Positions 9,447 to 27,817 of a DNA stretch of 64,000 bases are shown in pieces; the stretch's first letter is position 1, and the number at the start of each line of letters is the position of its first letter. Below the pieces are notes generated by a model. It was not told the origin of the DNA. It ran no database searches and saw only the letters and a list, made by a program, of their open reading frames with translations. A program made the translations under genes and the position numbers. This stretch comes from Squalus acanthias. Its lineage: Eukaryota. Location of the stretch: NCBI GenBank assembly GCA_030390025.1, contig CM059431.1, positions 94,800,001-94,864,000 on the forward strand, read 5' to 3'.

Positions 9447-10413
9447 TTGGGCTGTTCCCGAGACCCCAGGCTCCTCTCCGAGCCGGAATTCCCCATCTCT
9501 CTCTCCAACCACTCTCGAGTCCCCAGATTGCTGCAACCCCCACCACCACCCCCCGCGATTGCCCACACTCCGGTTGCCGAGGCGGGCTGCGGGAGACCTC
9601 TGCCGCAGTCTGTTCTCCGATCCACAGCACCTCCACCACACTGAAGGGATCTGACGGTCCTGGCAGTCATTTCAAATTAATCCCTCACCTTGGAAAAACC
9701 ATCGCAAAACGTCTACACTATATTGTTAATCAAATCATTTATTCAATGTGCTAACCAGGCAGTTGTATCGTTAGCTTGGTAAAAAGACATGCAGTTAAAT
9801 CTAGTTAATAATCAATAAGGCAGTTTGAATATGCTTTCAGCTCTGTAGTGTAATATAAGATGCCACACGCGCCTTTTTCGATCGTAAACCGGGCACACTC
9901 CGTCGTGCTAGCCCTTCCACAACCCAAGAGCCTGGGAGGGTGTCTTGATCGCCTTTATTGGGTTGAGTCCATGGAAACTTGAGAGAAAGGGGATACCTTC
10001 AAGGAGTTCCGTGACTTTCATCCATAGCTGATCCAACGTGGATCCACTTTGTTGAGCCCAGACCTCCGGTGCTTTACGCAGCACCACGCAAAATGGATCT
10101 GTCACTGTGACGTTACTCAGCACTCTGCCCCAGCATGTGGATTTCCCCTGGATGACATCTCTCTCCGGTACAGCATTATTGTCACCAAGTGGGGGGGGGG
10201 GGGGGGGCATCGGGGGGTCAGGTTGGTTTACCTGGGAATAGGACGTTATTGCATCGCCACCACCGCCAAACAGATGTTCAGTACAGGGAACCCAACCTTT
10301 ATGAGAAAATCATGTGATCAGATGTCATGTGATTGGGCATCACATAGTCAGGTGTCATGTGATCAGAATGATCAAACCTCCAGGCATGCCCCCAACCAGA
10401 GTTGGCAACCGTA

Positions 10414-11613
10414 TCCTGACTGTGCTCTGTGCCCTCCATACGAGCTCCTGACTGTGCTCTCTGCCGTCCATACTAGCTCCTGACTGTACTCTGGGCCCTG
10501 CATACCAGCTCCTGACTGTGCTCTGGGCCCTCCATACTAGCTCCTGACTGTGCTCTGGGCCCTCCATACTAGCTCCTGACTGTGCTCTGTGCCCTCCATA
10601 CTAGCTCCTGACTGCTCTGGGCCCTCCATACTAGCTCCTGACTATGCTCTGGGCCCTCCATACCAGCTCCTGACTGTGCTCAGGGCCCTCCATACCAGCT
10701 CCTGACTGTGCTCTGGGCCCTCTACACTAGCTCCTGACTGTGCTCTGGGCCCTCTACACTAGCTCCTGACTGTGCTCTGTGCCCTCCATACTAGCTCCTG
10801 ACTGCTCTGGGCCCTCCATACTAGCTCCTGACTATGCTCAGGGCCCTCCATACCAGCTCCTGACTGTGCTCAGGGCCCTCCATACCAGCTCCTGACTGTG
10901 CTCTGGGCCCTCCATACCAGCTCCTGACTGTGCTCTGGGCCCTCTACACTAGCTCCTGACTGTGCTCTGGGCCCTCTACACTAGCTCCTGACTGTGATCT
11001 GGGCCCTCCACACTAGCTCCTGACTGTGCTCTGGGCCCTCCACACTAGCTCCTGACTGTGCTCTGGGCCCTCTACACTAGCTCCTGACTGCTCTGGGCCC
11101 TCTACACTAGCTCCTGACTGCTCTGGGCCCTCTACACTAGCTCCTGACTGTGCTCTGGGCCCTCCACACTAGCTCTTGACTGTGCTCTGCGCCCTCCGTA
11201 CTAGCTCTTGACTGTGCTCTGGGCCTTCCATACTCGCTCCAGACTGTGCTCTGGGCCCTCCGTACTAGCTCTTGACTGTGCTCTGGGCCTTCCATACTCG
11301 CTCCTGACTGTGCTCTGGGCCCTCCATACTAGCTCCTGACTGTGCTCTGGGCCCTCCATACTAGCTCCTGACTGTGCTCTGGGCCCTCCATACTAGCTCC
11401 TGACTGTGCTCTGGGCCCTCCATACTCGCTCCTGACTGTGCTCTGGGCCCTCCATACTAGCTCCTGACTGTGCTCTGGACCCTCCATACTAGCTCCTGAC
11501 TGTGCTCTGGTCCCTCCATACTAGCTCCTGACTGTGCTCTTGGCTCTCTACACTAGCTCCTGACTGTGCTCTGGGCCCTCCATACTAGCTCCTGACTGTG
11601 CTCTGGGCCCTCC
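10414..11613 (+). repeat. 32-bp satellite (ctcctgactgtgctctgggccctccatactag), left part, interrupted by the provirus
   Basis: ~37 tandem units; the array resumes in register at 24274. Confidence 0.95.
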
Positions 11614-13272
11614 TGTAAGGGGGTTTCACGTGGCTTTGTGCTTAGCCTGGGTGCTAGTGCGGGGTTAGGCCTTGTTGCCTGTTCTGGTCTCCAGCCAGCC
11701 TGGTAACACTAGACACCTGTGAGTGGTTCGACCCACTCGCCCTTACGGTTCTGACACTGGACTTAGGTGCGAGAGCAATAATGCAGAGAAAACTCAGGTA
11801 GACCCGGTTGAATAGTGCGAAATGGAAAATCTTTATTGCATATTATTCAAGATTACGAAATACATGTCATAAGCACAGATTAATGACAGTACAAACTTAC
11901 ATACATTTATGCAACTAGGTTTAGGGAAACGAGGAGCGCACGACACATCGTAAAAGGGGACACACATTATAATTATCCTTAAAACATAAACCCTCCCCTA
12001 TCAATGCCTGTCCTAATCTAGATCTGTAGGATCGAGACTCATGCTCACCACTCGTGATAACTCGGAGAATTCCGAACCTCTGCTCGGATGTTTTCACCGC
12101 AGCACCTGACTATCCACGTGTTGATCAGGGGTCTCTGTACCCAACTTGTTTACTCGCTTCTGCTCCGGCTAGCAGGCTGGATCGTCTGCTGTCATGAAGA
12201 TCTGTGTTGACCTTGGACTCCAGATACAGTTCAAAGAAGAGTCTTACTGTGCCCGACACCAGTTGTCGGTAGAACTCGAAGAATAGTCTTCTCGGGCCAG
12301 TTGTGGAGTAGCCGATAGAATTCGAAAATGGTCCTTATATTTTGAGGCGCGGTCGGGGCTTACTGACCGCGGCGACACGTGTAGTCTTCTTCTCTTCTCA
12401 TCTCATCTCATCTCATCTCCTCCCGGGCCTTCGGATCCGACACCGTTTACCGACTCCTAGGGATGGTGCGCCCGCTTATCGGCCTTTGCAGTCCAGCTCT
12501 CCACAGATCTTCGCGGCAAGCCACGAGGTTGACTCCCGGAAAATCAGCGGATCAGAGAATGAGAGTCCAGAGCTCCAGTCGGTAGTAAAGAATAAGAGCA
12601 CGATGAACAGCCAGAGGATAAGAGAAAGATGGACGTTTGGACACTACAGTTTATAGTACTGTAATTCCTTATCTCCCGCCCAATCTTTAATGTTCATCTT
12701 TTGTCATGTTTTGGCGCTCAAACTTCTTGTATGGGGTGGTACTTGTCGTTAATGGGTTACGGTGATACTTGTAACTGTCTGAGTACCCGTTAATATTTTT
12801 CCCATTGTGGAACCGGCTAGTAGTCTCCCTGGAGGGGTTTTGGGGGCTTCCAAATGCTTGCTGTGAGTACCCGTGAACGGCTCTCTCATCGTAGAGCCGT
12901 GGGGATTTTGCATATCAATGTCTTTGGATGGGTCCTTGATCGCCCAGTACAATAGCCCTCGTTTGTACCTGGAAGACCGATTCCAGTATTTATGTTTAAA
13001 ATGCAAACCCATCGCGTCTTGTCATTATCTCAAATGTGCTGAGTCCTGTCCGATCTCGCTGAAATGTTTATTGAAACGCCATCTTGTCTGCCTACTGAAA
13101 GTCTAGAACCTTCTGCCACGAGGCGTGGCGGCCATTTTACAGGCTGCTTGTGTCCTTTTTGAAACATGACAGCTTTTTGAAACATGACAGCATTTTGCTG
13201 AAATAAAGCTGTTTATACGAACTTTATGTTTCCTTATTATTATAAAATCGCGATAATTTTGCGAATTCTACA
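11614..13272 (-). repeat. 3' LTR of provirus (1659 bp)
   Basis: Direct repeat of 22633-24273 with about a dozen substitutions by eye plus an 18-bp tandem duplication; minus-strand TATAAA at 12650-12655 and AATAAA at 11832-11837. Confidence 0.95.
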
Positions 13273-13284
13273 GTCCCTCCTGTT
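13273..13284 (-). other. Polypurine tract
   Basis: AACAGGAGGGAC immediately 5' of the 3' LTR on the minus strand. Confidence 0.65.
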
Positions 13285-13726
13285 GATGCGAATAACTCCG
13301 CTTATCGTATCAAAAACATTGTGGTGAGCAATATTATCTCGATTCTCCATATCTAAAAATTCCCATAACTTAAAACTATCTAGGGTCTCCGTGTCGTCCT
13401 TATTTCCCAGGAAAATTACATTCTTATAACACCGTAGGCAGCATTTGCCTTTAACTTACACCGCGTGTATTTCCTTCCAGGTGTAACCAGGCCGATGCCT
13501 CTCGCACCACCTGCATATGCATATTTTTTATTCAAGGAAAAAGAAAACAAAAACAACCAAACAAACCAAACAATCATATTCAACAACACCAAATCAAAAT
13601 AATCAAAAAACAACTCTTAAACATGTAGAGTTCCAAACTTAATTACAGTTTCTGAGAAAAATCACGATCAATGACAACAATTCCGAGGCGCACGTGCAAA
13701 AACTGGAGTGACGCCATTTTGGCCGT

Positions 13727-16047
13727 TTACGCGGTGCTTTCTTCGTGCACGCGCACGTAACGCTCTCGCCACTCTCCCGTGTTTTCGTTCTTGGTGAGGC
13801 GTTTGCCTCTCTTACAATGCACGACCAATAAGTATATCGCAATAAACACTTGGCATACAACTAAAATGTGGGAGGCTATTCTAATCCAGGAAGGCACTTC
13901 AATGTTGGTGAACAGGTCCCACCACGGTGGGATTACTATGTCTAGAATTTCTGTCCCTATCTCGACAGTCTTTTGTTCTAGGGTGTAAAAATGTTTCTGC
14001 GAAACCGCAACGGCTTTCAAAAGCTTGGTGAGGTGTTCAGGGAGAGGGGGAATGAGGTATCCGAAATGCGCGACGAATCGCTGCAAGTCGGTAAAATTCT
14101 CTTTTACTGTTAGATGAACAGTGGATGGTTCAGGGATCGGGACAATTCGCTGCTGTGCCACTTGAACTTCAGCCCTGGGTTTAAAACAGAAACTGCTGTC
14201 ACTCACCGGACACCGGCTGCGGTTTCCATGCTGGTAGTGTTGCGCTGCAGTGGTAACGCAATATGTTCCACCCCCTATGTATGCCACCTGCGGAGGCACA
14301 TGATCTTGTGCCATTGCCTCCATGGTGCAATTCATGGGCTTGGCGCCAGCCGTTCTGAACCCGCACTGTGGTGATAAAAAGGCATTCAAGTGCTGGGGAC
14401 ACAGGATTATGTGTGCTCCCCTGCCACGACAACCAGAGAGATCTGTACCTGTCATCGTTTGCTCCCAGCGGATGACGTAAGGTGGAACCGCTGCATAGCG
14501 AATGTGGGCTCCCCCCTGAATGACACCAATGTTCTCTACCCGATATACCGGGGCGGGCTTTGCTGTGTCGCCCAAAACCGGCATACGTAAAACTACCCCC
14601 ACAATGGTGTGGTTTGATCGTCCGCAGTCCACGGGGACTGGGTATGCTTCTGAAGCTAGCCTGAGCTGGCACGGGCTTAATGCGTTCTGAAAAGGGTGGA
14701 GCGCCTGCAGGTGTTTGTTACTTATCCAGGACGGGACCAAACCTTGTTTTAAATCCTCCAAATTACTGCGGCCCTCGCCCAGTAACCACGCCCCGTAAAG
14801 CACGCACACCTCGTTCTGCGCAGCCTGATCGGACGCATTCCGATCTTCCCTGATCAGGGCATTCACTGTATCTGCATGTTTCTCCAGCTCAGCTATAATT
14901 TCTTTTAAATGGAGAGTCATGGGCTGGTCCTCATGTAACCCAGACCCAACCACCTTATTTTCGTCTGTAAGAATATTCTTTAATTGTGTTTTCAAACCAT
15001 TAATCTGGGTCTGCAGCTCCACGCTGTGTAGAGCGTTGACCACAGATGTACCTGTATTGAAAGCAGTGAACATGTCGTTCACAACACCCCTTCTTTGTCT
15101 CCCCACCTGACCCAAAACTTCATGTGGTGCGGTGTACAAACTTGTTTTATCAATTTCCGCGAAATCGAACTCATAAAATTGCCTAAACATCTTGGTCAAC
15201 AGGACCTGATATAACTGTTCCGTCTCTTTGGGGCACCACTCCGGCAACCGCACCTCGGTGAGGTTTAAAATCACTGAGGCCACCGCATAATGTACCCCCT
15301 GAAATAGTAGCTGGTCTGTAGGGACCAGTACCAAACCATTCCTGGGTCCCTTACCGGTTTCAGGGCACCCTTCTTCCTTAGCTAGAACCACCGGAATTGT
15401 GGGCGGGGCCTTGCGTGGGCGCGTAATGAGTTCAGTGGCGTTTACCGGGATCGGAGAGTATGGGGCCCCGCACCCCCTGGTGCTTACATGCCACCTCATC
15501 CCCTGCCCGTTATCCTGCCACTGATTCACGAAAAATATGGATATGCCTTTGGGGCAAACGTGCTTTGACCCCCACATACATACATAGATTCCCTCATCCG
15601 GTTCCCACCATTTGTCCCAACAGACTCTCAATTGTCCGTTAGTCCCCGTAATTGTCCGATGGGTAGTATCCTCATATTCCTGCTCAGCTTTCGTAGCCAC
15701 CACCATCGGCTCAATGGGACCTTCCCATTGCATGTCAAACAAATCCTTTTGCCGACGGTGACGCTGATTCTGGGTGCAATGATCCTCACTCTGGGGCACA
15801 GTAAAGAAGTCTCTTTGTAGGCAAATCCCGATGCACTGGAGTATTCCGTCGAATTCGTTCCCAGCCATCCCGGCCACCTTCCCTTGTGGAAATAAGTGGC
15901 GGTCTCCTCAGCCTTTCGCTTCCCGGTCCCATCCGTCGCGATGGGGGCCGTGTCCCCGGAGCAACCAAACACCACGACATCCTTGCTGCGGCCTCGATAG
16001 GCCAATCCACATCCAAATGCCGCGAGCACTACCAGAATCCGTTCCAT
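13727..16047 (-). pseudogene. env: env: signal peptide + Ig-like domain + class-I fusion glycoprotein resembling Mononegavirales F; one inferred frameshift near 15690
   Basis: MERILVVLAAFGCGLAY signal at 16047; furin site RQRR/GVVNDMFTAF at 15089-15100; heptad ELQTQINGLKTQLKNIL; Cys-rich ectodomain; second heptad; TM segment IASHILVVCQVFIAIYLLVV; short tail. ORF 13727-15877 covers the downstream frame. Confidence 0.85.
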
Positions 16048-16054
16048 CCTTCCT

Positions 16055-16085
16055 TGGTTCCTGTGATCAGATAGAATGAGGTAGC
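16055..16085 (-). promoter_or_regulatory. Candidate env splice acceptor
   Basis: Minus strand ctcattctatctgatcacag/G, 13 nt upstream of the signal-peptide ATG. Confidence 0.55.
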
Positions 16086-16886
16086 CAGCCTCCCAAGAGT
16101 CTCTGGCTTTTGTGAAGGGTGAGCGGGTCCCCTGACCTCGCCTCACGTAAGAAGACATGTGCGCTGGATAGATCTTTTAGCTAAACCTAATCTTAAACTC
16201 CCATCATTTATCTTTTACTTATTAAAATTTTAACTATCAAACTTCAAACTTAAAACTTATAAACTATAAAACTTATAACTTATCTTATAAAACTGTACAG
16301 CGCCGCCCATTCCCAGAGCAGCCTACTCAAATTCTGCGGTTGCTGCCACAGGCTTCTCCCAACGGTGGGAGGGCGCTGACCCCTCCTTTTGATCTGCCGC
16401 AGCCTGTGGCTGCTGCGCTGGGACTGGGATCTCCCTGGGCTGTTTTAGCCTTGACCCTACGCCTTGGGACACTCTGGGGACTTACCCACATCTTTCTGGG
16501 CTGGGGTTTCCGACTTGACCTACGGGGAACTACCGGGGGCAGGACCGACGGACCGGGTTTCGAGACTTCCACCGTGGCGACCTGTGGTCCCACCACAGTC
16601 GCTGGCTCCGCCCCCCCCTGACTCCGCCTCCCTGAACTCGGGATCTGCAGCCTCTGGCACTGCCCTACTTGGCCCAGTAGGCGGCCCTTTACTCGCAGTC
16701 CCTACCTCCCTCGAGGGCAAGACTTCCAAGGCGGACGGATTGGGTTCTGAGGCTTCCATTGCCACGTCCTGTGGTCCCACCACAGCCACTGGCCCCGCCT
16801 CCCCTAACTCCGCCCCCCTGATTTCGGGACCTGCAGCTTCTGTCTCCACCCTGTGTGGATCTCCATCTGCAGTCCCTATCTTCCCT

Positions 16887-19800
16887 TTACCTGAATCGGG
16901 CCCTTTCGTCCTCCGATTCCAGCTCCTCTTCGCTTGTGTCACTATCTTGGTCGAGCTCCTCGAACTCTTCCTCATCTGACTCCCAACCCCAATAAAGGAT
17001 CCTACATTTTGCTAGGATGTCCTCTCCCCTGATGCAGGCTGCTTTGCCTGCCTGTGTGCCCTGTGGCCCTACCCGGGGCTGCGAGTCCCCACTCGCAGGT
17101 TTGGCCCCTGTGGTAGGCCCTTGTGCACCCGGCTTATACAGTTTGCACTGATTTACGTGGAACCACTTAGTGCGCCGAGGTACTTTTACGGCGTATACCA
17201 TGGGACTCGCCTTATCTACAATGCTGTAGGGTCCCATATACAGTGGTTCCAGACTCCCTACTCTGGCATAGTTTCTGACCATGACCTGGTCTCCTACTTC
17301 CCACTCCTGCTTCTTGCGGTGTTCCAGCAACAGGCGATTGCCCTGATGCTGTCTTCCCATGTTCCCAGCCGCCTGCTCATAAACCTGCTTCAGGCGCTCC
17401 AAGAGGGTCTGGACGAACTTGTCCCTGCTTACCTCTTGGAGCTGACCCTCAGTGAGCACCGGCGCTAGTACATGGGTGGGGGTTCGCATGATCCTTCCAG
17501 TCATCACCTCGTGCGGGGAATACCCCGTACCTTTCGACTGACTGGCCCGGATCCCCATGAGGACTAGAGGCAGAACCTCCGCCCATTTTTGGGGCGAGTT
17601 CATAGTCTCTTTCCTCAATTTCTCCTTCAGGGTCCGGTTCATGCGTTCAACAATCCCGGATGACTGGGGATTGTGCGCTACGTGCCACTTCCCTTCAATG
17701 CCCAAAAGCATGAGGGTGTTCTGCATCACCTGGCCGGTGAAATGACTCCCTTGGTCTGACTCCACGAAATGGGGGAGTCCCCACCGCGAGAACACTTCCC
17801 GGACCAAGATTTTTGCAGTACCCAGCGCCGTAACTGTTCTACAGGGGAAGGCTTCCACCCATTTGGAAAACACATCCACCAAGACGAGGCAGTATTTGTA
17901 GCCTCCCTGGGTGGTGGGCAGGGGCCCTATATAGTCGATCTGTATCGACTGCCATGGTCCCTCCACCCTCCTGATGTGCCCCATGGGCACTTTCCTTTTC
18001 TGGGGGTCTGGGTTGTTTGCAGCGCACACGAGACAGCTAGCACAGAACTCGCGGACCTGCTCCCTGAGTCCCGGCCACCATCCCGCCTACTCTACCCGTT
18101 GCCAGGTAACCTCGGGCCCGGGGTGCCCTGCCCCCGGCCCCTCATGAGCCAACTGGAGGAATTCCCTCCTGTGCTGCTGCGGCACAACCCACTGCTCCTC
18201 GCAGAACAGCATGCCTTCCTTAAGGGAGAGGGTTGCCATACTGTACGGACCCTCTACCTGCTTGCCCTCAGCAATGGTTCTGAGAACTGCTTTTAGGGCG
18301 GGATCCTGGTTCTGGACGGTCTTAAGGTCTAGGGGCAATGCTACCCTGGTGTTCCCGGGATTCCCGTCCCTGCCTTGGATCGCTGCCACGGGTCTGGGCC
18401 CATAGGGGTCCCAGAAAATGCCGTTGCGGGCACCCTCCCTGGCGAGCGCATCCGCCTGCTGGTTGCCCTCCCCACGGGGCTCTGTGGAGGAGTGAGCCTT
18501 CACCTTATGGATGAAAATCTCCCCTTCCTCCCCTACTGCTGCTAGGATCTTCTCCAGCAAGGGCTTCACCGTTAAAGGTCGCCCGTCCGCGGAGGTGTAT
18601 CCACGGCGGGACCAAATGGCCAGGTATTCCGTACACGAATTGCATGTGAACATACTGTCCGAGCAAATCGTCTATGGGGTTGGGAAAGTTTCTGGGTGGG
18701 TAACGATGTACGCCACCGCAGACAGCTCAGCCTGCTGCGCGCTCATGGTGCTGGGGAGCTTAATCGCCAGGGCAAAGTTTGCCGCAGGGTCATAAACTCC
18801 ACACCCTGTGAGTCGTTCGCCAGCGGATACTGTGCTGGACCCATCAACATAAATTTCGCGCCCTGTGGGATGTATCCCGGCCCGTAAACCTATGTTGACT
18901 TCCCACACCCCCTCCACCGAACACTGGTGGGCTGTACCGGGGTATACCAAATTGGCCGCAAGCCTGGGCTCGCAAAGACCTTTAACCCTAAGATCCATCT
19001 GGGAAAGGAGAAGGGTCCAGCGCGCAATTCGAGCGCTGCTTACGGTCCCATCCTTAATCCTCCCATCTAGAAGCATCTTAGTTGGTGTGTGATGGGTGAG
19101 GAGAGTGATGGGAGAGAGCCCTGTGAAGATCGCTGATCTTTTCACAGCCCAATGCGTGGCTAAAAGATGCCTTTCGCAATTGGAGAAACTCCTCTCCACA
19201 TCGGTCAACACCCTGGACAAATAGACAACCGGCCTCAGCTTGCCGTGGCGCTCTTGGAGCAGCACAGCGCTCAAGCTGTCTCCGCTGGCAGCTACCTCCA
19301 GGAAAAATTCCTTCCCCCCATCTATGGCCCCTAAAGCTGGCGCGGTCTGCAAATCCCTTTTTAACTTCTCGAAGGCTGCCTGGCAGCCCTCGTCCCAAGA
19401 CCACTCCACTCCCTTATGGAGGAGTCGGAGCAGCGGCGCCGCTGTGGCCGCATAGTCTTCGATAAAATCTCTGCAGTAACCGGTCAGTCCCAAAAAGGAC
19501 CTCACACCCCTTATGGTGTTGGGAATCGGTAACTCCTGCACCGACTCCCTCCTAGCCTTATCTATGGCTCTTTCCCCAGCGCGAATGGTCAGCCCCAGGA
19601 ATTTTACTTCCTGCTGACCGATACGTGCTTTCTTAGGGTTTACTTTAAAACCCTTTCTCGCTAGCAGCTCCAATAACTCGGCCAGTAGTGGTCCATGCTC
19701 CTCCCTTGAATCCGTAAATAGGAGCAAATCATCCACGTACTGCACTATCTGATTGGGCTGACTAAACTCCTTTAAACTTCCTGCCATACACTAATGGAAA

Positions 19801-20804
19801 ATACTGGGGCTGTTGTGGAAACCCTGTGGCAGACAGCTCCATGTGTACTGTTGTCCTTTGAAAGTAAAGGCAAACTTGTACTGGTCCTCTCGCCGCAGCG
19901 GGATGGACCAAAAACCGTTCGAGATATCCAGCACCGTGAACGTGGTCGCGGACGCTGGGATGCTCCCTATTAGGTCAGCAACTGCTGCTACCGTGGGCGC
20001 GCAGGCGGGGATGTTACTGTTAAGGACTCTGTAGTCCACCGTGGCCCTCCACGAATTATCCGGCTTCCTAACCGGCCATAATGGGGAGTTCACGTGTGTG
20101 GCTATCGGCCTCAACACGCCCTGCTGCACCAAGGAGGACATTGCTGCCTCCATATCGGGTTCCGCTTCTTTGGGGAAGTTATACTGCTTTTGGGGCCGGG
20201 TCATGGGGTCCCCATCTACGCTGACCTCAAACCCGGTAACCCTCCCACAATCGTGCTTGTGGGTTGCAAACACGTGCATATTATCTGACACGTACGTTTG
20301 CATGTCCGTTGGGACATCCGCGACCATAAGCCCGAGGTCGTAACCTCCGGATGGCTTCATGGTACACAGGGCCCCTTTACCTTCCTCCCCCGGAATTACC
20401 ACTACCTTGCCTTTTCCATCCTTGGCTCCCCAGAGACAGTGATTCCTAAGGTCCACGAGGATCCCGTGCTCCGATAGGAGATCTGATCCGAGGATGCCTC
20501 TCCCACCCCCCTCTTGCCATTTCATCAGTATGCACTTCCACGTGGTGTGGAGTGCTCCTAAATGAATGGAGAGCGGAATGGAGAACGCGCCAGCCTGCTC
20601 TTTTCCCGTGAACCCCGCTAATGTGTATGGGACCTTGGTAGACAGTGGTGAGTCAAAGGGGCTATCCGTATGAATCACGGTGCATGAAGCTCCCGTGTCC
20701 AACAAATAACTACCCTTCTACTTCTCTACCTCCATCTCCACCAGGGGTCGCTTCCACGCATCATAGCTGAGCGGACACAGGTAGACGGGCTGTGCGGGCT
20801 CTAG
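16887..20804 (-). pseudogene. pol: pol (protease, RT, degenerate RNase H/tether, RNase H, integrase) in one frame with four premature TAG stops
   Basis: LLDTGASC; VLDISNGFW, CLPQGFHNSP, YVDD; tether FFLEVAAS...NCERHLLA; RNase H IYVDGSS, SAQQAELSAV, HKVKAH, GNQQADALAR; IN HHCC, QIDYIGP, ESDQGSHF, SGIVERMN, GPY. Stops at 20718, 19791, 18672, 18087. Confidence 0.92.
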
Positions 20805-22628
20805 TCATTGGGTATTGTTGGACGGGGCTGCGGCATCTGCAGGGCCGGTAGCGACTGCCACCCTTCCTTGCGAAATCATGAGGGTGCGCATGGCTCCCAA
20901 CATTGATTCGATCGCATCGGGATGGATAGGCACACCAGCTCCCCTATCAGAGACAGGCGCCTGGGCTCGGACTGCGGGATTTTTATCCCTGGACTCCTTC
21001 CAAGGGTTCCTGCAGTTCTTGCGCCAGTGCCCTGTCTTTCCGCATCCGAAACAAGCATTACTGGCTTGTGGGACGCGATTTCCCTCCTGATGCCACTCCT
21101 TTTGAGCCGGGGCTGTGGGTCGTGCCTCATGCACCTTTCCCTTAAGGGGACGCGCTCCCGTACTCCTGGTATTATGGTACCCTACCGTGAGGTGGTTTAG
21201 GACCGACTCCTCTGTTGTGGCGGGGTTAGTGGGATCAAACCACGCTTTGGCCTGCTCCCTCACGGCTGGCAAGCTGTTGGCTACTATACATCTGAGCCAG
21301 TGAGCTAAACCAACGCCGTTTAAATCAATGCGCTCGGGCGCGCCTGGGCAACTACGCTGATAGACAGGCCACAGCCTGTCGGCGAAAACCTTCGGGGGTT
21401 CTCCCTCCATCTGCATAGTCTGTCCCAATCTCACAAACGGACCTTCATTGTCCGCCCCCAACACCTCTAGGACCTCATCTCTTAACTCCTCATAGGTCCT
21501 ATTACCCCTTTTACTCGCGTCTGAGAGACACTGGAGGATCGAGCTGTCTAAGGAGAACAGCAGCATTTTTGCCCTTTCCCCATCGTCGCAGCCGTTAATG
21601 GCTGCAGTCTGCTCTACCTCCCTGAAATGTACGGAAGGGTCGTCTGACTCGGACAGCTTCCGTACGTGGCTGATCATAGCCCTCAGCTGGTGTGCGCTGT
21701 GAGGCAACACAAGCTGGTTGAGGAGATCCCCCGCTTCCCCACCGTCTCCGTTCGGGCCCCTCTTGATACCTGTAAGCGGGCACAATTGTCCTGGCTTCAC
21801 TACTACTTCAGGGGGCTGTACTACCTCGGGGACCTCTTCCTCTACTTCTACCACTTCCTCCCTTACCCAGGTTGCCGAATAGCTGGGTGGCGCGGAGGGC
21901 ACAGTGGCAAATACCTCCTCTGCTTTGTTCGGTGGGGATTTCTGGAATTCCCCACCCACCGGCGGCTGGTGTGCTGACGGGCTGATAAGGCACACCATGC
22001 CGTGCGCTTTATTCAGGGCCTCTTTAAGGTTCCTTATCTCTCTTTGGCAGACGCTGTGATCGGCCCCCTCATGTTTATCCTCGAGGGCCATCTTATATGC
22101 CGCCCATACCCCCTTTAAGCTCTCTTCCTGGGCTTTTATTTGAGCAGCCAGGCAGGCACATCGTTCCCTTATTCTGCCCTCATTTAATTTTGCCTCAGTG
22201 ACCTGGCACTCGAGGTAATCTATTTTCGCCTCATGGTGGTTGGCGACTAACTGGCGTTCTTGATGCAACGCATTTAAAGACGCGATGAGCTGCTGCCCCC
22301 CCGCGACCTTCTCGTCCATTTCCACCTCTAAACCCTTGATCTGAGCTGCCTGCGCTATGATGACCTGGTCCGAAAGCTGGACTTGTCTTTTTTAACACAT
22401 CAGCCAGACCGCTTTCTCGACAGATTTTTTATGTTCCTTGCTACCTGTCCACCCCACGGCTGCCTCTCGTGGACGCTTATCCACCAGCAGGTCACTTATC
22501 CATCTCTTAGTCAAATTCACTTTTCCAAAAACATAATCGGCTATCCTCTCTTCCATAACATTTCGCCCATTCATACCAGGGTCTAACACGTTATTTTCTC
22601 GCTGCCAGTGTCCCTTCGTAGTCGCCAT
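20805..22628 (-). pseudogene. gag: gag (N-terminal coiled coil, capsid-like region, single CCHC knuckle) with one in-frame TAA
   Basis: ORFs 22392-22628 and 20805-22325 share a frame, separated by TAA at 22392-22394; CFGCGKTGHWRKNC zinc knuckle. Confidence 0.85.
22610..22627 (-). other. Primer binding site, tRNA-Arg(TCG)-like
   Basis: TGGCGACTACGAAGGGAC 5 nt downstream of the 5' LTR; 17/18 complementary to a recalled vertebrate tRNA-Arg(TCG) 3' end, GTCCCTTCGTGGTCGCCA. Confidence 0.8.
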
Positions 22629-22632
22629 TATC

Positions 22633-24273
22633 TGTAAGGGGGTTTCGCGTGGCTCTGTGCTTAGCCTGGGTGCTAGTGCGGGGTTAGGCCTTGTTGCCTG
22701 TTCTGGTGTCCAGCCAGCCTGGTAACACTAGACACCTGTGAGTGGTTCGACCCACTCGCCCTTACGGTTCTGACACTGGACTTAGGTGCGAGAGCAATAA
22801 TGCAGAGAAAACTCAGGTAGACCCGGTTGAATAGTGCGAAATGGAAAATCTTTATTGCATATTATTCAAGATTACGAAATACATGTCATAAGCACAGATT
22901 AATGACAGTACAAACTTACATACATTTATGCAACTAGGTTTAGGGAAACGAGGAGCGCACGACACATCGTAAAAGGGGACACACATTATAATTATCTTTA
23001 AAACATAAACCCTCCCCTATCAATGCCTGTCCTAATCTAGATCTGTAGGATCGAGACTCATGCTCACCACTCGTGATAACTCGGAGAATTCCGAACCTCT
23101 GCTCGGATGTTTTCACCGCAGCACCTGACTATCCACGTGTTGATCAGGGGTCTCTGTACCCCACTTGTTTACTCGCTTCTGCTCCGGCTAGCAGGCTGGA
23201 TCGTCTGCTGTCATGAAGATCTGTGTTGACCTCGGACTCCAGATACAGTTCAAAGAAGAGTCTTACTGTGCCCGACACCAGTTGTCGGTAGAACTCGAAG
23301 AATAGTCTTCTCGGGCCAGTTGTGGAGTAGCCGATAGAATTCGAAAATGGTCCTTATATTTTGAGGCGCGGTCGGGGCTTACTGACCGCGGCGACACGTG
23401 TAGTCTTCTTCTCTTCTCATCTCATCTCATCTCATCTCCTCCCGGGCCTTCGGATCCGACTCGTTTACCGACTTCTCGGGATGGTGCGCCCGCTTATCGG
23501 CCTTTGCAGTCCAGCTCTCCACAGATCTTCGCGGCAAGCCACGAGGTTGACTCCCGGAAAATCAGCGGATCAGAGAATGAGAGTCCAGAGCTCCAGTCGG
23601 TAGTAAAGAATAAGAGCACGATGAACAGCCAGAGGATAAGAGAAAGATGGACGTTTGGACACTACAGTTTATAGTACTGTAATTCCTTATCTCCCGCCCA
23701 ATCTTTAATGTTCATCTTTTGTCATGTTTTGGCGCTCAAACTTCTTGTATGGGGTGGTACTTGTCGTTAATGGGTTACGGTGATACTTGTAACTGTCTGA
23801 GTACCCGTTAATATTTTTCCCATTGTGGAACCGGCTAGTAGTCTCCCTGGAGGGGTTTTGGGGGCTTCCAAATGCTTGCTGTGAGTACCCGCGAACGGCT
23901 CTCTCATCGTAGAGCCGTGGGGATTTTGCATATCAATGTCTTTGGATGGGTCCTTGATCGCCCAGTACAATAGCCCTCGTTTGTACCTGGAAGACCGATT
24001 CCAGTATTTATGTTTAAAATGCAAACCCATCGCGTCTTGTCATTATCTCAAATGTGCTGAGTCCTGTCCGATCTCGCTGAAATGTTTATTGAAACGCCAT
24101 CTTGTCTGCCTACTGAAAGTCTAGAACCTTCTGCCACGAGGCGTGGCGGCCATTTTACAGGCTGCTTGTGTCCTTTTTGAAACATGACAGCATTTTACTG
24201 AAATAAAGCTGTTTATACGAAACTTTATGTTTCCTTATTATTATAAAATCGCGATAATTTTGCGAATTCTACA
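22633..24273 (-). repeat. 5' LTR of provirus (1641 bp)
   Basis: TGTAGAATTC...CCCTTACA on the minus strand; TATAAA at 23668-23673 preceded by a GC box/CCAAT (gattgggcgggag); AATAAA at 22851-22856. Confidence 0.95.
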
Positions 24274-24404
24274 CTCTATACTATCTCATGACTGTGCTCT
24301 GGGCCCTCCATACTAGCTCCTGACTGTGCTTTGGGCCCTCTACACTAGCTCCTGACTGTGCTCTGGGCCCTCCAGACTGTGCTCAGGTACTAGCTCCTGA
24401 CTGT
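24274..24404 (+). repeat. 32-bp satellite, right remainder
   Basis: Same unit as 10414-11613. Confidence 0.9.
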
Positions 24405-24760
24405 AACTTACTAAGGAACATAGGACCAGGAATAGGCGATTCAGCCCCTCGAGCCTGTTGCACCATTCAATTAAATCTTGACTGATTTTCATCTTAACTC
24501 CTTTTACCCGCAGGTGGAAGAAGGACAAGTGGAGGAAGATGAAACTAATCTTCAAACAAGTCGACTGCAAAGCAGACAAGAGCAGGTGCCTGACTGAAAA
24601 AAAAGCCCAGTAATTCTCCTCCAGATCCGTCCAAACATCTTTAACGGGGCGTCAAACACCAGCCCTCTGTGTGAAGTCTCATGAACTCTGCTTCTAGCAG
24701 CCCACGAGAACTGCAGCCTTTAAATTTCACTCCACAGCAGCAACCCTCCCCCGGGGGGGG

Positions 24761-25260
24761 NNNNNNNNNNNNNNNNNNNNNNNNNNNNNNNNNNNNNNNN
24801 NNNNNNNNNNNNNNNNNNNNNNNNNNNNNNNNNNNNNNNNNNNNNNNNNNNNNNNNNNNNNNNNNNNNNNNNNNNNNNNNNNNNNNNNNNNNNNNNNNNN
24901 NNNNNNNNNNNNNNNNNNNNNNNNNNNNNNNNNNNNNNNNNNNNNNNNNNNNNNNNNNNNNNNNNNNNNNNNNNNNNNNNNNNNNNNNNNNNNNNNNNNN
25001 NNNNNNNNNNNNNNNNNNNNNNNNNNNNNNNNNNNNNNNNNNNNNNNNNNNNNNNNNNNNNNNNNNNNNNNNNNNNNNNNNNNNNNNNNNNNNNNNNNNN
25101 NNNNNNNNNNNNNNNNNNNNNNNNNNNNNNNNNNNNNNNNNNNNNNNNNNNNNNNNNNNNNNNNNNNNNNNNNNNNNNNNNNNNNNNNNNNNNNNNNNNN
25201 NNNNNNNNNNNNNNNNNNNNNNNNNNNNNNNNNNNNNNNNNNNNNNNNNNNNNNNNNNNN
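24761..25260. other. Assembly gap (500 N)
   Basis: Run of N flanked by G-rich sequence. Confidence 1.
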
Positions 25261-25422
25261 GGGGGGAGGAGGAAGGGGAGGGGGTGTAAAGGGGAGGGGG
25301 GTGACGGGGAGGGGAGGGGGGCGGGGGGGGAGGGAATTGGTGGGGGGTGTGGGTGGGGGGAGGGAGGACAGGGGACGGGGGCGGATCAGGTTTGTTTACC
25401 TGGGAATAGGGCGTTATTGCAT

Positions 25423-25551
25423 CCTGACTGTGCTCTGGGCCCTCCATACTAGCTCCTGACTGTGCTCTGGGCCCTCCATACTAGCTCCTGACTGTGCTCT
25501 GGGCCCTCCATACTCGCTCCTGACTGTGCTCAAGTACAAGCTCCTGACTGT
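25423..25551 (+). repeat. Short copy of the 32-bp satellite
   Basis: ~4 units followed by the same unique flank as 24404-24650. Confidence 0.85.
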
Positions 25552-27817
25552 AACTTACTAAGGAACATAGGACCAGGAATAGGCGATTCAGCCCCTCGAG
25601 CCTGTTGCACCATTCAAATAAATCTGGACTGATTTGCATCTTAACTCCTTTTACCCGCAGGTGGAAGAAGGACAAGTGGAGGAAGATGAAACTAATCTTC
25701 AAACAAGTCGACTGCAAAGCAGACAAGAGCAGGTGCCTGACTGAAAACAAATCCCAGTAATTCTCCTCCAGATCCGTCCAAACATCTTTAACGGGGCGCC
25801 CGATCAGTAGCAGCCCATAGTAGTGCTGTGGAGTTGGGAGAAGCACTCCTGCTCCTCCACGCTTCACAGAAGGAGGAGTAAAAAAGTTTCAATTGCATCA
25901 GCACTTGGGACCGCTGTTTAAGCCAGTGTAGAACTGGAAAATCTAGTCGGAGCTTGCACAGTGAATGATCCACCTAGTTTTTTGCACATTTTACTGAAGG
26001 GTCCTAAAACAGGCGCAGGACCATTTTTGCATATTTTAATTGATCCAACGCTGACTTCAGGCAACTGGCAGATATGCCTAATAGCAGTGAGGATTAAAAT
26101 GTTTTTGTCTCTGTTCCTGCCCCCCTTTAAAATTGTACCATTTGGTTTATATTGCCTCTCCTCATTCTTCCTTGCAAAGTGTATCACTTAGTGCTAGGGT
26201 TCACAACCCTCCTGCTTTGGGCGGGAGTCTATAGGAGTGGACGATTGGTGCTGCAGCTGGCGACTCAGTCCTTGTATGCACTGTTAGCACATGTGCAGTA
26301 CCCTGGCTGTCGTGGCTTGCAGCCAATTCGCATTGTCTGGGCCCTGCTGGTCCTCCTGCTATTCGGAACATACCGCTTCCTTACCAGTTGTGAGGATGGC
26401 GGCACCGGGGACCTTAGTTGAGTGTCTTCGTATCACCAAGCCCCGAATAAAATATTTGACACTTTGTTTTGTAGTGAGATGAATAGCATAATTTATAAAT
26501 CAAAGAACAAACACTAAAGAATAGAAAGATTTAAGGATTTCTATAGTATTTACTGCAGTGAGAAACACTAAGTCAATTCCATTGATTCAACAAAAACATG
26601 ATCAATATAAGTAACTTCTAACTAAAGTTTTTGTACAATTTTATGACTTTTACAATACATGGCGAGTATAAAACAGTAAATAAAACCAAAACCAAACCTA
26701 ATTCAATTCACTGACCCTCCACTGGAGTTTGTTTCTCTCTCTCCCTCCTCACAATTTATGTTTCTCTCTTCCTCCCTCCCCCAGTTTGTGTTGCGCGCTC
26801 TCTCTCTCTCTCTCTCTCTCTCCCTCCCTCAGTTTGTGTTGCTCTCTCAGGACAGAGTGTCGAGGTGAGTTTCGTTGTCCCCGATGCCACCATCCTTACT
26901 CTCCCACCACCTTGGTGATACAAAGACACTCAACTAAGGTAAATGCAATAACAATTGCAAAAAGTGAGCAAATTTCACGTGATCAAACGTCATGTGATTG
27001 AGCATCACATGAGCAGTGTCACATGCTTGAATACCATGTGATCAAATATCACATGATCAAATCTCCAGGAATAAGTCAAACCAGAGTTGGCAACCATCTT
27101 GATGCCAATTTCACCAGTCTGTCTATTTATCTCCCGCAATCTGCTACTACCCTCTTCACTGTTAGCTACATTTCCAAGTTTTTGAAATTATTGCCTGTAC
27201 ATTTGGGTTTTGAATTTGACAGGCACAGTGTAGATTCTAGGGTTAAAATTACTTGATTAAAAAGTGACGTTTGGTCTGAAGTTGCCCTGTCTCCTTGCCA
27301 ATTATGAACGCGATCACTTCTAAACTAACATGTTGCAAGGCTAGAGCTTTCGTGATTTGTTACAGTTCAGCGCTGAGTCTGAAATCTGTAGCAGCTGATC
27401 GACATAAAAGTTCACTGAAAAGAAACACAAAAACTCCACTGTCTATTCAACCACATATAACTGAACTGTCAAATCCAAGCCTACTGTGAGCAGCATTACA
27501 ATCCATTTATAAAGCAGATCATGCAGGCTCCAATCTTCAATAAATACTGCTGTTCTCACTACTTAACTGGATCCAGCACACTACTTACTAGGACTTCAAA
27601 TAAAATCTCTCCTATGCTTCAAGCTAGGGAGATTTCTCCTAACTGCAACCTGAAGTTGGAGCACATGGATGCTCCCCACCCAACCAAATCACTTGACCGA
27701 AAATAATTCATTCTTGAAAAACTAACAATTCATTCTTGAAAAACTAACTATAGGATTGATTCAGGAAGAGCATTCACAATGAACCACAGGGAAAACCCAC
27801 CCCAAAACCACAGGGTG

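Follow-up and report, generated by a model that had tools for sequence, protein, structure and literature searches.

In a stretch of 64,000 nt from Squalus acanthias (GCA_030390025.1, contig CM059431.1, positions 94,800,001 to 94,864,000; below, the window), the env gene of a provirus is divided between two overlapping reading frames. This raises the questions of whether the two frames belong to one gene, whether that gene encodes an immunoglobulin (Ig)-like domain in front of an F-type fusion core, and what such a domain might do. F-type class I fusogens occur in paramyxo- and pneumoviruses, baculoviruses, errantiviruses, lokiretroviruses and, structurally, in foamy viruses, and the route by which each of these lineages came to bind receptors is a standing question in their evolution. 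A canonical Ig V domain preceding an F-type core, if confirmed, would be a clear example of a viral entry protein built from modules, and perhaps of a host gene captured by a retroviral env.

The provirus and its divided env gene

The features of the provirus are collected in Table 1. Its LTRs differ by 12 mismatches and 3 gaps over 1664 aligned columns, and ORFs for Gag, PR-RT, RNase H, IN and env are located between them. Among solved structures, the nearest to the window pol product are gammaretroviral for RT-RNase H (MLV/XMRV, 4e-41) and foamy viral for IN (7e-24). The retrovirus family is present in thousands of copies in the S. acanthias genome, with three diverged env subfamilies and numerous long open env frames, and the window locus itself is an ordinary one: a decaying provirus with a private env deletion and three pol stops. 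At all three TAG sites, the 11 other loci compared have sense codons (CAG, TAC and CAG, the third being CAA in one copy). On this comparison, the stops are apparently private to the window copy and attributable to ordinary decay after insertion; an origin by APOBEC-type editing was considered and rejected in view of the codons found in the other copies.

Table 1. Features of the provirus in the window (positions in the window; the domain assignments within env are predictions)
Feature	Position	Strand	Remarks
Whole provirus, LTR-gag-pol-env-LTR	11613..24276	-	12.7 kb; LTR pair (11613-13275 and 22632-24276) and internal ORFs
gag	20805..22391	-	528-codon open frame with CCHC zinc knuckle
pol (PR, RT, RNase H, IN)	16887..20717	-	one frame with 3 TAG interruptions (19791-19793, 18672-18674, 18087-18089)
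env start codon and signal-peptide-like stretch	15997..16047	-	codons 1-17, MERILVVLAAFGCGLAY
N-terminal subdomain, no assigned fold	15799..15996	-	codons 18-83; alignment A1
Predicted Ig-like domain, first part	15670..15798	-	signal-peptide frame, codons 84-126; A/A' strands; B strand GKRICLTC 15730-15753; C strand WWWLRK 15688-15705
Break	15669..15670	-	31 nt missing at env codon 127; C'-D part of the domain; frame shifted
Predicted Ig-like domain, second part	15521..15669	-	713-aa ORF frame; RTITG 15644-15664; DEGIYVC 15578-15598; G strand GISIFFV 15527-15547
Proline-rich linker and putative F-like fusion core	13727..15520	-	core from about 15370; RQRR cleavage motif 15089-15100; candidate fusion peptide 15029-15088; membrane anchor 13820-13879; stop codon 13727-13729

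The initial annotation proposed that the two env frames are one gene broken by a single missing base near 15690, and that its repair would give a protein of ~770 aa with a compact Ig fold having ~50 residues between the core cysteines. The parts on which it relied are present: the upstream minus-strand ORF (15628-16158, 176 aa) holds MERILVVLAAFGCGLAY and ISVTVGKRICLTC...RWWWLRK, and the overlapping long ORF (13727-15868) holds NGQLRVCW...DEGIYVC, although it measures 713 aa from its ATG and not 716.

Alignment of other genomic copies, one of the checks suggested with the annotation, revealed that the two frames are indeed one gene. We compared 69 copies, 39 of which were found with the window's own stretch and 30 independently via the env 3' half. 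In 59 of the 69, a single frame of equal length runs through the signal peptide and both halves of the domain (GKRICLTC/WWWLRK and DEGIYVC). Env codons 78-194 form a single frame of unchanged length in 30/39 copies of the window-stretch sample and in 29/30 of the 3'-half sample, and this segment is also stop-free in 27 and 22 copies, respectively (49/69 in total); from the start codon to codon 226, neither a stop nor a length change occurs in 24/39 copies. A Met followed by a hydrophobic run of 13-15 residues opens env in all three genomic subfamilies. The same joined arrangement is found in shark and skate relatives at 50-74% identity, and the joined N-terminal sequence is carried by the cartilaginous-fish proteins P0001, P0005, P0048, P0008 and P0010. 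A domain stretch of 117 residues is kept in the proteins of other species and in the three genomic subfamilies, which show 55-65% identity to the window-type copy L006 over this stretch. In unbroken copies, env comprises about 783 aa counted from MERIL, in the order signal peptide, ~65-aa subdomain, ~103-aa domain, proline-rich linker and fusion core.

None of the 69 other copies has the 31-nt gap of the window copy, which is therefore private to this locus; such a deletion inside the Ig domain would split env into the two frames observed. The gap is known from the assembly alone, no contig bridging 15669|15670 having been found among the short assembled contigs of public runs, and no RNA dataset is on record among the public runs listed. 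A single missing base that hides a compact domain would fit the window taken by itself, where both frames are open across 15628-15910, so that a one-base shift anywhere in this interval would join them. All 69 copies, however, differ by the 31-nt stretch at 15669|15670, and it is because the window lacks these nucleotides at codon 127 that the spacing of the core cysteines in unbroken copies (C106-C167) is 61 positions and the protein length about 783 aa, in place of the values first proposed; the comparison of copies refutes the one-base explanation. It equally refutes the idea, which we find hardly credible, that ORF 15628-16158 encodes a separate small secreted accessory protein overlapping env. 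Nothing in the window alone would contradict that idea, the ORF of 176 aa being complete in itself and containing a signal-like peptide, but this ORF ends at a stop made by the frame change, and in other copies and species its sequence continues into env in one frame.

Seven other copies of the window-stretch sample contain different deletions of 16-46 nt at about codons 122-147, with no further large indel in 2.3 kb of env. Such deletions are absent from the independent 3'-half sample (0/30; one copy has an 8-nt deletion at codon 145), and a deletion hotspot in this region was therefore set aside. With an unbroken copy as the query, 36/40 matches cover all 901 nt, and four fall short of this by 2-23 nt. 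We read the deletion cluster as mostly ascertainment, plus some real slippage at short direct repeats.

Sequence and predicted structure of the N-terminal domain

The domain (residues ~84-186) contains the core pair C106/C167, W117 and DEGIYVC, as well as further conserved cysteines (C84, C103, C153 and C175) and the tryptophan-rich segments WWW and CWDKWW. Among the stop-free copies, C106, W117 and C167 are each kept in 49/49, and D161, G163 and Y165 in 48/49 each; in A4, an alignment of 48 sequences, C106, W117, C167, G163 and Y165 are invariant or nearly so. W117, invariant in A4, follows C106 by 11 residues, which fits the strand-C Trp of Ig domains (11-15 residues after the first Cys), and the C106-C167 spacing is within the range of about 55-75 that is typical of the Ig core pair, the disulfide being a prediction only. 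DEGIYVC conforms to the D-x-G-x-Y-x-C pattern of V-type domains, with E/Q variants at its first positions in other subfamilies. Covariation of Cys103 and Cys153 was considered and rejected, the two Ser variants being located in different copies.

The dN/dS ratio of the domain is 0.08 between subfamilies B and C (where dS is near saturation), 0.14 within C and 0.35 within B, compared with 0.30 for the neighboring N-terminal subdomain between B and C. Greater conservation of the domain than of the subdomain would be unusual for a fast-evolving binding surface, an observation that speaks against receptor binding. At the sequence level, the comparisons of copies and relatives demonstrate that the frame is single, that purifying selection has maintained it and that it carries an Ig signature. 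The N-terminal subdomain has the conserved motifs GCSG, H.GRWPGWLGSNST.YSS and CP; it gave no Pfam match, and in the first AlphaFold model it was unstructured, at low confidence.

The Pfam profile Ig_3 aligned with residues 85-167 over profile positions 2-74 of 78 (6-74 in P0010), with E values of 0.0027 for P0048, 0.0085 for P0010, 0.035 for L006 and 0.083 for L052. Overall, sub-threshold Ig_3 matches were obtained for 5 sequences (E 0.0027-0.14; 4/10 members of A1), and the Ig-clan gathering score was not reached, the best Ig_3 match having 18.6 bits against a cutoff of 30. In the ESM Atlas, the best named clusters for residues 86-186 were all Ig (ig, V-set, I-set and Ig_3), with scores of 0.91-0.92, where scores of 0.9 are also reached by 4-10% of shuffled proteins. 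The sole match of the A1 profile to solved chains was a nanobody (E 0.34), and phmmer with the unbroken env gave no match to solved chains at E<=10.

AlphaFold produced no usable fold for the first 260 residues (10 sequences; pLDDT 34.2). Modeled alone (residues 78-194; 48 sequences), the domain reached pLDDT 63 and pTM 0.57, with nine strands predicted, at medium confidence, in the order A-A'-B-C-C'-D-E-F-G required of an Ig V-type sandwich, C106 being placed in strand B and C167 in strand F. In a VIA-align comparison with 48,161 chains, the top matches were V-type Ig domains, led by TREM-1 (Z 6.7, rmsd 3.0, 90 aligned) and including TREM2, NKp44, pIgR D2, CD300, TCR V and the Fc-mu receptor, with all Z scores below 8, a range in which the tool warns of a merely common arrangement. 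A second structural comparison gave Z 6.2 for TREM-1 and 185 chains with Z of at least 5. Foldseek yielded no match to the domain model at E<=0.001 (TM 0.41-0.50), and its best 50 matches were entries with antibody, nanobody or shark VNAR chains; the PDB is rich in antibodies, and any beta-sandwich tends to list them. The best viral structural neighbor was the Ig-like membrane protein UL6 of HCMV (E 8.4e-3), which we take to belong to a protein family linked to immune modulation.

The V-set domains of TREM-1 (1u9k_B/1q8m_A), TREM2, NKp44, pIgR, CD300 and the Fc-mu receptor are thus the best structural neighbors (Z 5.1-6.7, rmsd 3.0-3.6, 82-92/117 residues aligned), but their identity is just 12-17% and they show no relationship in sequence. 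Because matches within 1 Z unit tie with antibody and TCR V domains, they do not point to any one donor family. An Ig V-type fold of the domain is moderately supported by the conserved signature, the sub-threshold Ig_3 matches, the ESM neighbors and the AlphaFold model with its structural matches. What stands of the Ig fold as first annotated is the signature and the medium-confidence sandwich, not the compact spacing; of the structural checks proposed at that time, AlphaFold returned a sandwich and Foldseek no match at the threshold applied.

The putative fusion core and comparison with known envelope proteins

The RQRR motif, followed by G(V/I)VNDMFTAFNTG, can be read directly in the env sequence, as can the membrane anchor. 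The ESM neighbors of residues 200-726 were Baculo_F and Fusion_gly (0.92; 193-203 shared features), and the best solved-structure matches of the env profile were foamy virus Env 8rm1_D (E 0.085) and 8ozh_A. In a 726-aa unbroken copy, neither PF00523 nor PF12259 matched at E<=10, and in the 713-aa ORF of the window neither did so at E<=0.1. The earlier assignment to the F-type fusogens therefore agrees with the ESM neighbors and the weak foamy virus match but finds no counterpart in Pfam, and a putative F-type core is a supported lead only.

The Env of lokiretroviruses, for which amphibians and lobe-finned fishes are named as host groups, has a core similar to paramyxo/pneumovirus F (Wang and Han 2020, PMC7947760). 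It has a signal peptide, a basic cleavage site, a fusion peptide, a coiled coil and a membrane anchor, a set of parts predicted for the window env too, and it matched PF00523 at E 2.2e-7, whereas the window env has no match at E<=10; the text of the paper contains none of the words immunoglobulin, shark or cartilaginous (PMC7947760). The window element was compared with lokiretroviruses by env and hosts only, its nearest RT being gammaretroviral and its nearest IN foamy viral.

The core of foamy virus Env has been published as F-like, with a separate receptor-binding domain (RBD), a layout like that proposed for the window env (PMC11468914). The foamy virus RBD is described there as inserted within the F2-like part (residues 217-543), whereas the window module is N-terminal, and foamy virus Env has a long leader peptide, whereas the window module directly follows a short signal peptide (PMC11468914). 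In the F proteins of paramyxo/pneumoviruses and of baculoviruses/errantiviruses, the cleavage site, the fusion peptide and the heptad regions follow one another as predicted for the window env; unlike the latter, these F proteins depend on a separate attachment protein or have no N-terminal Ig module. The window Gag has a CCHC knuckle, which to our knowledge foamy virus Gag lacks. The RBD of Friend MLV is an N-terminal Env domain, an antiparallel beta-sandwich described as Ig-like that binds the receptor; as far as we know, it is without the canonical Cys-Trp-Cys and DxGxYxC and is carried on a gamma-type and not an F-type TM.

The initial annotation knew of no such architecture among retroviral envs. 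No description of a retroviral env with an Ig domain was found in the literature searched (work on endogenous foamy viruses of cartilaginous fishes was not covered), but P0013, a distant shark relative, is already named 'Ig-like domain-containing protein' in UniRef.

Possible function and origin of the module

An unbroken env would give a type I membrane glycoprotein of the length stated above, with a predicted class I core of the paramyxovirus-F/baculovirus-F/foamy-virus type (RQRR, fusion peptide, heptad regions and anchor). We consider it rather probable that the protein consists of a signal peptide, the subdomain, an Ig V domain, the linker and an F-type core, with a module that is probably host-derived and is most likely receptor-binding, because F-type cores are without an attachment function of their own and some relatives are core-only. 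This SU-like part would stay on the fusion subunit and trigger fusion, and it would have joined the core as a complete module in the distant past, with a host Ig-superfamily gene as its probable source. The thousands of copies, in three subfamilies with long open frames, offer natural variation in which a constrained surface could be found, and the same family supplies candidates for co-opted host genes.

A genuine Ig-like fold might instead cap, shield or stabilize the trimer, or act as an immune decoy or ligand mimic, attachment being left to the preceding ~65-aa subdomain or to another surface. The stronger constraint on the Ig region between subfamilies B and C, the length fixed at 117 residues across subfamilies and species, the more variable N-terminal subdomain, which looks like the better specificity determinant, and UL6 as the best viral neighbor all favor such a role. 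The module nevertheless occupies the position of the SU-like attachment parts in other class I fusogens, and the nearest solved domains (TREM, CD300, pIgR and NKp44) are ligand-binding V domains; we therefore judge a non-binding role unlikely. We give still less weight to the explanation that the region has no Ig fold, its Cys/Trp/DxGxYxC pattern being part of another beta-rich or disulfide-knotted domain and its structural matches reflecting only the abundance of antibodies in the PDB. It would account for sub-threshold scores in every database, for Z values below 8 and a pLDDT of 63, and for the four extra conserved cysteines and the unusual WWW/CWDKWW richness. Against it, four independent kinds of evidence agree on family and register: a Pfam alignment that extends over almost the whole profile, ESM neighbors that belong to Ig families throughout, a fitting strand order in the model, and canonical residues that fall on strands B, C and F. 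In addition, the top matches in the representative search, which is independent of Foldseek, are non-antibody V domains.

The initial annotation saw in the module a captured Ig-superfamily unit that acts in receptor binding or as an immune decoy. As regards the receptor-binding Ig module that we favor, the host donor search recommended with the annotation identified no Ig-superfamily donor among 46 N-terminal matches at E<=0.001 in 1.84 billion representatives, these being env relatives and one probably spurious bacterial repeat protein, nor in a longer search, whose 3 matches were env-derived models. P0039, a bacterial-type repeat protein of 5014 aa, aligned with env residues 22-88 in 16 stretches and was rejected as a match that looks compositional.

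Env relatives are also present in the frog (P0022) and coelacanth (P0047) genomes. Distant relatives can be aligned from the linker/core region onward, and hhalign with A4 aligned only the core region, with no Ig part, in three distant comparisons. In P0038 and P0047, which could be truncated gene models, the core follows the signal peptide directly. The N-termini of P0013, P0022 and P0035 also look Ig-like but differ from the module described here (for P0035, V-set gives E 0.045); these three proteins were left out of the folding alignment because they were scattered over unrelated columns. With a domain-only profile, strands B, C and F of P0013 (E 0.024) and of P0022 (E 0.063) fell into register, at a probability of about 1-2%.

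It is possible, although we put this forward tentatively, that the retroviral Env of the F type serves as a scaffold: receptor-binding modules of the Ig type would have been gained, exchanged or lost on it, and in this family a host-derived V domain would have been fused to it together with the subdomain. On this view, related shark and frog lineages have other Ig-like N-termini, and some are without any. Retroviruses would then have their own counterpart of two known arrangements, the separate attachment proteins of paramyxoviruses and the RBD inserted in foamy virus Env.

Reading frames of the env gene

Re-reading of the minus-strand frames placed the ORFs and motifs where the initial annotation had located them. 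One frame runs from 16047 and encodes a signal-like peptide followed by ...GKRICLTC...RWWWLRK..., with a stop at 15628; a second, open from about 15910 to 13727, carries ...THRTITGTNGQLRVCWDKWWEPDEGIYVC... together with the remainder of env. Comparison with a natural unbroken copy (L006) showed that the window lacks 31 nt between positions 15669 and 15670 (env codon 127), instead of the single-base lesion proposed near 15690. Apart from this gap, both env parts of the window copy are open. The unbroken copies encode a protein of about 783 aa with the core cysteines 61 positions apart, and not the ~770 aa and ~50-residue spacing predicted from a one-base repair.

The proposal that the two frames form one gene was borne out by other genomic copies. 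In a first sample (3273 first-look candidates, 40 scored; 39 other copies), obtained with the deleted window stretch as the query, each other copy was about 30 nt longer at one point. Length was unchanged between the start codon and codon 226 in 29 of the 39, and 24 of these were also stop-free; across the domain stretch (codons 78-194), 30 of 39 kept their length, with 27 of 39 open as well. Because this sample had been found with a deleted copy, a second was drawn via the 3′ half of env (31 new loci, 30 spanning the domain). Here, codons 78-194 had the same length in 29 of 30 copies and were open in 22, and the window's 31-nt gap was found in none of the 30.

Seven copies (L033, L035-L040) carry differing deletions of 16-46 nt at env codons 122-147, within the ~75-nt part of the Ig domain that also holds the window gap, and another (L093) has an 8-nt deletion at codon 145. 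Short direct repeats were present at several deletion ends of the seven, and their env contained no further large indel. Deletions of this type at codons 122-147 occurred in 0 of 30 copies of the independent sample, which indicates that the cluster is mostly an artefact of the deleted query; some slippage-proneness of this stretch is possible.

A survey with the joined-frame relative P0010 as query (5830 first-look candidates, 150 scored) distinguished at least three subfamilies of the env N-terminal region, with 55-65% identity to L006 over the 117-aa domain stretch. Their signal peptides differ, yet this stretch is exactly 117 residues long in all of them. Proteins of other species retain it at 50-74% identity. 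The homologues bear skate and shark names (Rhinoraja, Pristiophorus, Rhincodon, Mustelus, Chiloscyllium), with more distant ones in a frog and the coelacanth, which makes a cartilaginous fish (assembly of 3.7 Gb) the most likely host. For the domain, Nei-Gojobori estimates of dN/dS were 0.35 within subfamily B, 0.14 within C and 0.08 for B against C, where dS approached saturation; the preceding subdomain gave 0.62, 0.15 and 0.30, respectively. The constant length, cross-species conservation and dN/dS together indicate that the env N-terminal region evolved as protein.

The element is very abundant in the genome (3182-5830 first-look candidates per query, with diverged env subfamilies). Some copies lie only 7-32 kb apart (e.g. 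contig C9 near 91.39-91.43 Mb, C6 near 35.64-35.65 Mb and C3 near 132.04-132.07 Mb), a pattern that points to local duplication or nested clusters. In annotated Pristiophorus gene models, env fragments of this family are joined to C2H2 zinc-finger arrays (P0008) or, in P0003, to a Niban-1-like protein. Such fusions probably arose in annotation, although chimeric transcripts are possible.

Evidence for an Ig-like domain

The motifs follow the order of a V domain: C106, W117 (11 residues further on), RTITG, a hydrophobic E strand, DEGIYVC and a G-strand-like GISIFFV. The key Ig residues are retained in 48-49 of 49 open copies and are (nearly) invariant in an alignment of 48 sequences. Pfam Ig_3 aligned residues 85-167 with profile positions 2-74 of 78 and matched 4 of 10 members of the env N-terminal alignment. 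Its scores (13-18.6 bits; E values 0.0027 to 0.14 for five sequences) always lay below the threshold of 30 bits, and no Pfam Ig family reached its threshold. The profile of the ten-member alignment gave a single match among solved chains, to the F-G strands of a nanobody (E 0.34). The named nearest language-model clusters of residues 86-186 were all Ig families (0.91-0.92; unnamed clusters up to 0.93), scores of a size also seen in 4-10% of shuffled proteins.

Structure prediction gave a pLDDT of 34 for 260 residues; when the domain was modelled by itself from 48 natural sequences, pLDDT was 63 and pTM 0.57. The Ig fold expected in the initial annotation is seen in the domain model at medium confidence: it has nine strands in Ig order, with C106 on strand B and C167 on strand F. 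Foldseek found no match at E≤0.001. The 50 Foldseek matches listed (E 0.03-0.06, TM 0.37-0.50) are entries that contain chains of antibodies, nanobodies or shark VNARs. In VIA-align, which is independent of Foldseek (48,161 representatives), the top rows were mostly V-type Ig domains, with a few others (e.g. FlgD); TREM-1 was best (Z 6.7, rmsd 3.0, 90 aligned), followed by TREM2, NKp44, pIgR D2, CD300, TCR V and the Fc-mu receptor. In this search 31 chains had Z≥5 and none Z≥8. A second look agreed, with a Z of 6.2 for TREM-1 and 185 chains with Z≥5. The best match in a viral structure library was HCMV UL6 (E 8.4e-3). No single line is strong alone, but the different kinds of evidence agree on family and register. 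The predicted model, taken with the sequence, profile and language-model evidence, makes a V-type Ig fold of this env domain quite probable.

Env core, modularity and possible role

The Ig domain is followed by a proline-rich linker and a core starting near GCP..KGPGNGLVL, where distant relatives begin to align (21-32% identity; E 4e-53 to 3e-9). The core contains an RQRR site, a candidate fusion peptide and a membrane anchor. A Pfam search of the core gave zero matches; among solved chains, the best match of a 32-sequence env profile was to foamy-virus Env (8rm1_D, E 0.085; also 8ozh_A), and the language-model neighbours of residues 200-726 were Baculo_F and Fusion_gly clusters (0.92, 193-203 shared features). 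The foamy Env core is described as F-like (PMC11468914), and a similarity to PF00523 is described for the Env of lokiretroviruses (PMC7947760). We therefore regard the F-type label only as a supported lead.

In two distant relatives, P0038 and coelacanth P0047, the signal peptide leads directly into the core, while P0013, P0022 and P0035 have different N-termini that appear Ig-like by eye. That of P0035 has a V-set match (E 0.045), and a domain-only profile aligned in register, without significance, with those of P0013 and P0022. In this comparison the module thus looks like an addition to the core. Its canonical Ig-superfamily signature suggests that it may have been captured from a host gene, possibly long ago; the proposed search for a host Ig-superfamily donor yielded none in sequence searches.

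F-type cores are not known to bind receptors by themselves; for paramyxoviruses this is established. Foamy Env carries its own RBD (PMC11468914). We therefore interpret the N-terminal module, made up of the 65-aa subdomain and the Ig V domain, as a putative SU-like attachment part. It would stay connected to the fusion subunit once furin has cleaved Env, and receptor binding by the module would trigger that subunit. Against this reading stands the stronger constraint (dN/dS) on the Ig domain than on the first subdomain, as would suit a structural or shielding role of the Ig domain with specificity located elsewhere. The first subdomain is more variable than the Ig domain and may be what determines specificity. 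It contains the strongly conserved motifs GCSG, H.GRWPGWLGSNST.YSS and CP, and gave neither a family match nor a confident model. P0039, a 5014-aa bacterial-type repeat protein, has 16 stretches that match env residues 22-88 (32% identity; overall E 4e-8), a similarity that looks compositional.

Large DNA viruses are well known to have captured Ig domains, and the core of gammaretroviral RBDs is an Ig-like sandwich. The architecture had been called unfamiliar among retroviral envs. This held for the literature covered: none of the sources, which included PMC7947760, PMC13524379 and its preprint, PMC11468914, PMC13709493, PMC10072453 and bioRxiv 10.1101/2023.10.17.562709, was found to describe an F-type or lokiretroviral Env with an Ig domain at its N-terminus. 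However, UniRef automatically names P0013 'Ig-like domain-containing protein', which shows that databases already see such a domain there.

Structure and age of the provirus

Features of the provirus and its flanks (window coordinates)
Feature	Position	Strand	Description
Provirus	11613-24276	minus	LTR pair with gag, pol and env between
LTR pair	11613-13275 and 22632-24276	minus	1664 aligned columns: 12 mismatches, 3 gaps
gag		minus	528-codon frame; CCHC knuckle
pol	16887-20717	minus	protease, RT, Ty3-type RNase H-like tether, RNase H, integrase
In-frame TAG codons of pol	19791-19793, 18672-18674, 18087-18089		exactly three; otherwise single frame
Subdomain before Ig domain	15799-15996 (env codons 18-83)	minus	~65 residues
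32-nt tandem-repeat (satellite) arrays	10413-11613 and 24274-25563		both flanks of provirus

The arrays on both flanks indicate that the provirus inserted into the satellite; an N run at about 24760-25250 is an assembly gap within the upstream array. At the three TAG sites of pol, the other copies (11 loci compared) have CAG, TAC and CAG, with CAA at the third site in one copy. The window stops are therefore private point mutations, and these codons rule out G-to-A editing as their source. Over its 3831 nt, the pol stretch has accumulated 31 private changes, a level similar to that between the two LTRs (12 of about 1650). The window provirus is a moderately young insertion, decaying in the ordinary way.

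The closest solved structure to the RT-RNase H is that of MLV/XMRV (4e-41), ahead of Ty3 and foamy virus, and that to the integrase is from foamy virus (7e-24), followed by Ty3. In 7 of the 11 copies compared (L113-L123) the pol stretch is 5 nt longer than in the window (3836 vs 3831 nt). A minus-strand ORF of 151 aa (16520-16975), which lies upstream of env and overlaps with the end of pol, has no family match.
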